Assembly (NCBI GenBank): GCA_041640715.1 | Contig: JBEPZU010000002.1 | Span: 7,198-71,197 of the forward strand | Direction: 5' to 3' | Source: Thermoproteota archaeon | GTDB taxonomy: Archaea > Thermoproteota > Thermoprotei > Gearchaeales > Gearchaeaceae | Length of the DNA: 64,000 nt | In this document: positions 42,986 through 49,507 of the stretch, piece by piece | Layout: the number at the start of each line of letters is the position of its first letter | Numbering within the stretch: the stretch's first letter is position 1 | Translations under genes and position numbers: made by a program | Notes under the pieces: model-generated | Database searches by the model: none | What the model was told of the DNA's origin: nothing | The model's input: only the letters and a program-made list of their open reading frames with translations

Positions 42986-43100
42986 GTTAATGCTCTAGAA
43001 GCGAATTAATTAGTTAAAGCTTGAATTATTCATTTTGTTTAGATGGGGTAAATCATATGGGAGAATTAAGAATATAAGTTCTCTTTTGATTAATTTCATT

Positions 43101-43158
43101 AGCCAATGATGAAGAATTCCAATATGAGAAGTGATTTATCCCAGGGGTAGCTGAGGAT
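43101..43158 (+). ncRNA. Box C/D guide sRNA; D guide complementary to the conserved 23S rRNA segment at about 2437-2451 (E. coli numbering)
   Basis: C box ATGATGA 43106-43112, D' ATGA 43124-43127, C' GTGATTT 43131-43137, D box CTGA 43151-43154. The D guide TTATCCCAGGGGTAG pairs with CUACCCCUGGGAUAA. TATA-like AATATAAG at 43071-43078. Confidence 0.82.
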
Positions 43159-43397
43159 TATTTCTCATTTCATGATCTCTTAAGCTCTTGAATTTGGAGG
43201 TTTGTAAAATTTATCGTATCCTTCCTAAAGTAGATGGATTAGGTCTAAAATATTTAACGGGCATCATGATTAATATATTTAAAACAAAAGGAAGATTAAA
43301 ATTATAAAAATAGCGCTTTAATTATCTATAACTTCTTGTATATAATTATATATAACTTTATAGAAAGGCTTATAATAATGATGATGTACATTAGTTT

Positions 43398-49119: not shown

Positions 49120-49507
49120 TTCCCTAGAATACATTAATCAAATAATTTTTTTATTTTCATGATTTAGAGCCATAGTCTTCCTAAGTTTGGATCATTCTTG
49201 AACAAATTTTATTATTTCATTGAAGATACCGCGAGCTTAGACTTTAAACCAAATCCTTATCTTCATTTGAAATGTCAATCACCTTAATATACATCCTATG
49301 TTTAGTAAAGGCAACCTACAAGTACTTATTCTCATGATCTACATGAAAGGTTGGAGGAATTTTTACTAAGTTAATGGGTGAATTTTGTCGTATCAATATA
49401 TTATTTTATAGGAATCTTATTGTTTATCGAGATGTTCGTTATAACCCTTGCTACACTAATAATTTTGAAAGTATTTAATTATCTTTAATATAACAAATTA
49501 AAAATAT

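Follow-up and report, generated by a model that had tools for sequence, protein, structure and literature searches.

The window, meaning the whole 64,000-nucleotide stretch of archaeal DNA analysed here, carries a genuine box C/D sRNA gene at positions 43101-43158 of the + strand. The locus is the sole host orthologue of a phylum-wide dual-guide family, to which it adds a new member; the family is represented in the literature on Sulfolobus, Pyrobaculum and Methanopyrus by Sac sR128, Pyrobaculum sR16 and Mka sR16. The anatomy of the gene, its orthology, the co-variation of guide and target across the family and the presence of fibrillarin and Nop5 in the host are all shown by the analysis, and expression, RNP assembly and methylation at the predicted site in the host are inferred. 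With a probability of roughly 0.55, we favour the reading that the locus encodes an independently transcribed C/D sRNA whose D guide is most likely still directed at helix 74 of 23S rRNA and whose D′ guide has been orphaned. An unannotated metagenome-assembled genome thereby gains one RNA gene with correct boundaries.

Anatomy and genomic context of the sRNA gene

The host is a hot-spring archaeon with a 1.24-Mb assembly (46 contigs, 35% GC, 90% completeness) that carries reverse gyrase and GC-rich rRNAs. Among public sequencing runs its DNA occurs in a single one, a hot-spring metagenome that is probably the source. Its relatives include Pyrobaculum calidifontis (G019), with Sulfolobus acidocaldarius (G130) being more distant. 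The sRNA locus lies between a gene for reverse gyrase (1241 aa), whose stop codon is 116 nt upstream, and a SCO1/SenC gene that starts 240 nt downstream. On contig 19 of the same assembly, the gene for fibrillarin (326.8 bits) adjoins that for Nop5 (230.2 bits).

The first-pass annotation had described a C-D′-C′-D box C/D sRNA with a TATA-like element at 43101-43158, and this description holds. All elements are on the + strand. The TATA-like element, AATATAAG (43071-43078), is centred about 27 nt upstream of the RNA 5′ end and is a putative promoter; it is 100% identical between the host and its congener G003, and TATA-like AT-rich blocks occur at a comparable distance in G001, G002, G019 and G035. 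A C box of the RUGAUGA type near the 5′ end and a CUGA D box near the 3′ end are both present. The 5′ flank (43101-43105) is followed by the C box AUGAUGA (43106-43112), whose columns are invariant or nearly so in our alignment of homologues (A1). The D′ guide of 11 nt (43113-43123), with C43119 as its N+5 nucleotide, leads into the D′ box AUGA (43124-43127), a variant of CUGA that is also seen in G001 and in Pca sR16. A gap of three bases separates it from the C′ box GUGAUUU (43131-43137). In this internal pair the sheared G.A positions are present and positions 6-7 of the C′ box are degenerate, as read from the sequence and from A1; judging from K-loop geometry, a U-A pair formed by C′ position 6 and A1 of the AUGA box could stand in for the canonical G-C pair. 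The D guide of 13 nt (43138-43150; N+5 nucleotide G43146), whose core CCAGGGGUA is kept phylum-wide, abuts the D box CUGA (43151-43154), in which UGA is invariant in A1. The D guide had been put at 15 nt in the first-pass annotation; the complement was derived correctly, but the guide is 13 nt at most, because the last two of the 15 bases fall on the UU of the C′ box.

After the D box the sequence reads GGAU (43155-43158), which supplies the GG arm of the terminal stem and probably contains the 3′ end of the RNA. The stem is only 2 bp in the host, with C43103 and C43104 paired to G43156 and G43155. It is longer in homologues (4-5 bp) and the extensions are compensatory: GUCC/GGAC in G004 and AGCC/GGCU in G005, G007 and G008, while G036 likewise extends the host CC/GG to GCGCC/GGCG. 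A T-rich tract immediately 3′ of the gene (43159-43168), 100% conserved in G003, is a possible archaeal termination signal. Both guide spacers are unstructured, and the sRNA as a whole folds no more stably than shuffled sequences (z = +0.95), as expected for a guide RNA.

The gene sits inside a 120-nt block that is 100% identical between the host and G003, compared with 94% identity for the whole intergenic region and about 88% for the flanking proteins. Both guides are unchanged between the two genomes, which is mild evidence that both, the orphan D′ guide included, are under constraint. The identical block continues for about 50 nt beyond the sRNA (43159-43210), where C-box-like AUGAUCU and D′-like UUGA motifs and a weak Rfam alignment to snoU2_19 were observed. 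When 43157-43220 was aligned with the sequence at about 49326-49394 as a candidate repeat, identity was scattered (68% of columns).

A strict C-D′-C′-D regular expression found 7 sites in the host genome against a mean of 0.125 in eight local-composition shuffles of the 1.24-Mb assembly. The layout is thus about 50-fold commoner than in shuffled DNA and is real rather than a product of chance. The same strict pattern returned six more candidate box C/D sRNA genes in the host. The candidate at contig C5 ~55498 (-) has a D guide matching 23S rRNA at LSU 2616, 19 nt downstream of the site discussed below, and that at C44 ~1363 (+) has two guides matching 16S rRNA at 491 and 509; the others lie at C24 ~149 (-), C36 ~845 (+), C11 ~4439 (-) and C1 ~221253 (+). 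A relaxed pattern would surely surface many more.

A single-copy family across the phylum

BLAST and pattern searches identified homologues in the host genus, in the host family and in two further families. Within the genus, the sRNA of G003 is identical to that of the host over 81 nt and homologues are also carried by G001 and G002; within the family, a homologue is present in 7 of the 8 other genomes. We built a covariance model (R1) from ten homologues in A1, including 6-nt flanks, and ran it on 151 genomes sampled from across the phylum; 52 of them gave a match, in each case exactly one. The host gives the top score (65.6 bits), as expected for a training sequence. Two matches fall on published genes: in P. 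calidifontis the R1 start precedes that of Pca sR16 (982382) by six bases, an offset explained by the 6-nt flanks of the model, and in S. acidocaldarius it is at most one base away from that of Sac sR128 (1172733). Both of these sRNAs are supported by RNA-seq (PMC4644070).

In the window, as at the Sac, Pca and G111 loci, no Rfam family attains its gathering score. Weak matches over the whole RNA reach 16-20 bits (sR5, sR46, sR1 and snoPyro_CD), with gathering scores of 40-50 bits; these families share the generic box architecture of the host RNA, but their guides are unrelated, and the resemblance to the Pyrococcus sR46 guide is superficial. Release 15 holds no model for the sR16/sR128 family, and the published Sac sR128 and Pca sR16 loci go unmatched too. 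The gene had been called unannotated, which is correct as regards Rfam models, although the family itself is already published. A guide that had appeared only in supplementary tables for three species is seen to be a single-copy family, found in roughly one in three of the genomes sampled from the phylum and lacking an Rfam model.

Sac sR128 (Dennis et al. 2015, BMC Genomics 16:632, PMC4644070) has in common with the host gene the box order, the D guide core that abuts box D, the N+5 target at 23S C2715 (E. coli 2441) and a single copy found by the same covariance model. It differs at D guide position 8, which is U in Sac sR128 (a G.U wobble within an 11-bp duplex) and a mismatched A in the host, and in its D′ guide, which pairs with 23S rRNA 18 nt upstream (G2697) and is unrelated to that of the host. 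Pca sR16, numbered after the Pyrobaculum sR16 family of Lui et al. 2018 (PMC6009581), shares with the host the position-8 A, the AUGA D′ box and the GUGAUUU-type C′ box, and the 23S rRNAs of the two organisms share a Thermoproteales-type loop sequence. In contrast to the host, Pca sR16 retains the ancestral D′ guide, with 10 bp to 23S rRNA, and Dennis et al. 2015 (PMC4644070) assigned its D guide to C1108, a 16S site peculiar to that species and absent in the host. Mka sR16 is likened to the host gene by its predicted target, the same 23S column C2715 (PMC4644070), but comes from another phylum, and its D′ guide is directed at another nucleotide (23S C2772, Dennis et al. 2015). The shared column suggests that the guide is older than the phylum.

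The D guide and 23S rRNA

The first-pass annotation had matched the D guide to the conserved 23S segment before A2451, by way of a 15-mer, CUACCCCUGGGAUAA, expected in host rRNA. This exact 15-mer is absent from host 23S rRNA (C4:72904-75983, minus strand), 16S rRNA and 45 tRNAs predicted by ARAGORN, introns included, and across the 90%-complete assembly its sole match is the antisense strand of the sRNA gene itself. Its absence from host 23S rRNA, which the annotation had named as grounds for giving up the assignment, is literally what we found. The region was nevertheless correctly chosen. The homologous host segment is CUACCCCGGGAGUAAC (LSU 2597-2612), which alignment to the Rfam archaeal LSU model identifies as the strand entering the peptidyl-transferase loop, and the N+5 target is a C in the E. 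coli 2441 column of the E. coli-numbered alignment of PMC4644070. The predicted Cm at about 2441 therefore agrees with the published predictions: for Sac sR128 and Mka sR16 alike, Dennis et al. 2015 have the D guide aimed at 23S C2715 (PMC4644070, additional file 1), a column of their alignment that equals E. coli 2441. The U that had been predicted at about 2444 is a G in the host, and columns 2447-2448 read AG rather than GA.

In place of an unbroken duplex, the in-register pairing of the D guide with host 23S rRNA consists of 7 bp, an A.G mismatch at position 8, 2 bp, a C.A mismatch at position 11, a G.U and one further pair, covering LSU 2597-2609 with N+5 paired. ViennaRNA favours an alternative with a bulged A and 11 bp (-19.3 kcal/mol, compared with -25.2 for a perfect target). 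We scored guides after Lui et al. 2018 (Watson-Crick 2, G.U 1, mismatch -2, with N+5 paired). The 23S site scores 17 and the best rRNA score of the D guide is 18, at a 16S site, a value equalled or exceeded by 30% of shuffled guides; other candidate sRNAs of the host reach 19-21. The complementarity in the host is thus not above the shuffled-guide background, and the strength of match implied by the first-pass annotation does not survive. Judged by the host sequence alone, no target can be demonstrated for either guide. Because the host match falls within this background, support for assigning the D guide to 23S rRNA comes from homology and from the co-variation of guides and targets across the phylum.

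This co-variation was followed in 20 genomes that have both the sRNA and the 23S segment (19 segments were retrieved), each guide being compared with its own 23S rRNA. The family core, C(C/U)(U/A)GGGGUA, abuts box D and faces 23S UACCCC (E. coli 2438-2443), and in the host the pairing covers positions 1-7. Nearly all 20 genomes maintain pairing between guide positions 2-7 and UACCCC; departures occur at position 7, where G019 forms a G.U wobble and G048 and G055 are mismatched. Position 11 co-varies with the target in 16 of the 20, C occurring with G and U with A. Position 8 is U in 12 genomes, forming a Watson-Crick pair where 23S rRNA has A and a wobble where it has G, and is a mismatched A opposite 23S G or A in the remaining 8, among them the host, Pyrobaculum and G111. 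As the A is kept in the host and seven other lineages, the mismatch has been maintained rather than corrected. The D guide core and 23S target of G111 are those of the host, yet this genome has a 23S-directed D′ guide with a compensatory change; the host type of D guide is therefore anchored to the 23S site. In the host assembly we found no other sRNA with a better guide for it. The family is a clean case of guide-target co-evolution beside the peptidyl-transferase centre.

A second site for the D guide in host 23S rRNA, LSU 2838 (10 bp, two of them G.U), was set aside for want of comparative support. We also observed that G127 carries two versions of the 23S segment on different contigs, one of them identical to that of the host, which may reflect a mixed bin or two rRNA operons.

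Replacement of the ancestral D′ guide

The first-pass annotation had left the D′ guide as an orphan, and we concur: its best rRNA score is 15, which 47% of shuffled guides match. The family comparison offers an explanation. Most genomes carry an ancestral D′ guide, AGUCAUGC(C), whose target is 23S GGCAUGAC, 18 nt upstream of the D site, and which corresponds to the G2697 prediction of Dennis et al. 2015 for Sac sR128 (PMC4644070). The D′ guide pairs with GGCAUGAC over 7-10 bp in 16 of the 20 genomes, and changes in the guide follow changes in the target in G111, G098 and G070. The sR16/sR128 family is thus an ancient dual guide for two neighbouring 23S sites. The host D′ guide does not pair with this ancestral site (longest run 4). 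The ancestral guide is also missing from all seven other homologue-bearing members of the host family, and no other gene in the host assembly carries it. Two D′ cores occur in the genus, one common to G001 and G002 and the other, AGAAUUCCAAU, common to the host and G003. These comparisons indicate that the D′ guide was orphaned by replacement of an ancestral 23S-directed guide in the host family, and the gene illustrates how one guide of a dual-guide sRNA turns orphan.

Other targets for the D′ guide were considered. An exact target of the 11-mer occurs once elsewhere in the whole assembly, on contig 15, which is about the chance expectation. The best tRNA match, the anticodon stem of tRNA-Lys(UUU) (8 Watson-Crick pairs, 2 G.U and 1 mismatch), was ruled out because N+5 lies within the stem and the duplex reaches only -4.8 kcal/mol. 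A match at 16S 924-931 (8 bp including one G.U, -7.4 kcal/mol) does not rise above shuffles and is a weak lead.

Alternative readings and proposed mechanism

Several properties of the host gene count against the 23S reading. The score of 17 is not significant in the host alone, the position-8 mismatch is maintained and position 11 is mismatched as well, an uninterrupted 9-bp Watson-Crick match in 16S rRNA is at least as stable, and, with the D′ anchor beside it lost, the D guide is deprived of the second, co-operative contact that weak guides need under a rule described in PMC6009581. The 16S match opens a competing reading, which we consider possible although unlikely: that the effective target in the host family is the 3′ strand of 16S helix 32 (SSU 1179-1187), with methylation of C1181, the N+5 nucleotide at about E. 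coli column 1216, and with the position-8 A paired to a U that is found at that 16S position only in the host family. Guide positions 3-11, N+5 included, form nine contiguous Watson-Crick pairs with 1179-1187, and both the score (18) and the energy (-19.8 kcal/mol) are slightly better than at the 23S site. The U is present in the host and in G002, and also in G007, where a C-to-U change at another position of the site makes one pair G.U. The same run of C is the predicted target of the Pca sR32 D′ guide (Dennis et al. 2015, PMC4644070). However, this score also lies inside the shuffled-guide background, and the position-8 A recurs in G019, G035, G165, G111, G090 and G175, whose 16S rRNA has G or C there, so the A did not arise to fit 16S rRNA. 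Guide positions 2-3 (UA) are kept phylum-wide, which fits 23S rRNA, and position 2 is mismatched in 16S rRNA. Nor does the 16S site gain significant support from a second guide: a target immediately 5′ of helix 32 that the D′ guides of G001 and G002 might share was rejected, their matches being equalled by 17% and 45% of shuffles, respectively. The match of the D guide to 16S rRNA may be fortuitous or a recent second target. A more adventurous version, to which we give little credence, would have a small-genome lineage re-aiming an ancient 23S dual guide at 16S rRNA, so that one RNP touches or methylates the RNAs of both subunits; the position-8 A would weaken the 23S contact, the lineage-specific U would make a perfect 9-bp site in 16S rRNA and the D′ guide would be free to drift. 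If true, the D guide would be a caught-in-the-act example of retargeting between rRNAs.

It is also conceivable, but in our judgement improbable, that the RNP forms and neither guide directs methylation, the RNA being a guide in decay or a chaperone only, kept for transient pairing in 23S folding or for a non-rRNA target. Neither guide beats shuffled controls in the host, the ancestral D′ guide is lost, a mismatch sits at position 8 and the C′ box is degenerate. Both guides are the same in G003 though the flanking proteins differ by 12%. Such RNAs would have precedent, since 28% of Pyrobaculum guides are orphans and conserved non-methylating pairings have also been reported (Lui et al. 2018, PMC6009581). 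Against this, the D guide core is kept and co-varies with 23S rRNA across the phylum, and the N+5 pair and its neighbours are intact for the 23S site. Moreover, in vitro work indicates that one internal guide mismatch need not abolish activity. A last possibility, that box-like motifs arose by chance in AT-rich intergenic DNA with no RNA gene at all, would agree with the failure to reach Rfam gathering thresholds, but is scarcely credible. It is effectively refuted by the 50-fold excess of the layout over shuffles, by single-copy homologues in 52 of the 151 genomes with compensatory changes in the stem, and by the RNA-seq support for two of these homologues.

Under the favoured 23S reading, an sRNA of about 56 nt would be transcribed independently and would assemble with L7Ae, Nop5 and fibrillarin. 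In 23S helix 74 its D guide would dock on the 3′ strand, at a segment (host LSU 2597-2607) that lies ten nucleotides ahead of the A2451 equivalent, and would present C2601, in the E. coli 2441 column, for 2′-O-methylation. The duplex would be a weakened one, of 7 bp, the A.G mismatch at position 8 and 2 bp, or of 11 bp with the A bulged. The D′ guide is an orphan, its ancestral sequence, directed 18 nt upstream in 23S rRNA, having been replaced in the host family. The results leave knowledge of C/D RNPs unchanged, and methylation near the catalytic centre is an existing prediction rather than a new one.

Non-consensus bases near the peptidyl-transferase centre

In the course of the 23S comparison we observed that the host and all 26 relatives examined have non-consensus bases at near-invariant positions of the peptidyl-transferase centre (L001 1750-2120, equivalent to G000:C4 ~73150-73520, minus strand; also L023-L049). 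The archaeal consensus GGGGAUAACAG is replaced by GGGAGUAACCGG or GGAAUAACCGG, a change that recurs in several other families of the phylum. The host and the 26 relatives also have CCCAGACGUCGUCUC instead of CCUCGAUGUCGGCUC and, in the A loop, GCUGCCCGCC instead of GCUGUUCGCC. The published alignment of Dennis et al. 2015 (PMC4644070) shows these non-consensus sequences in P. calidifontis and T. tenax too.
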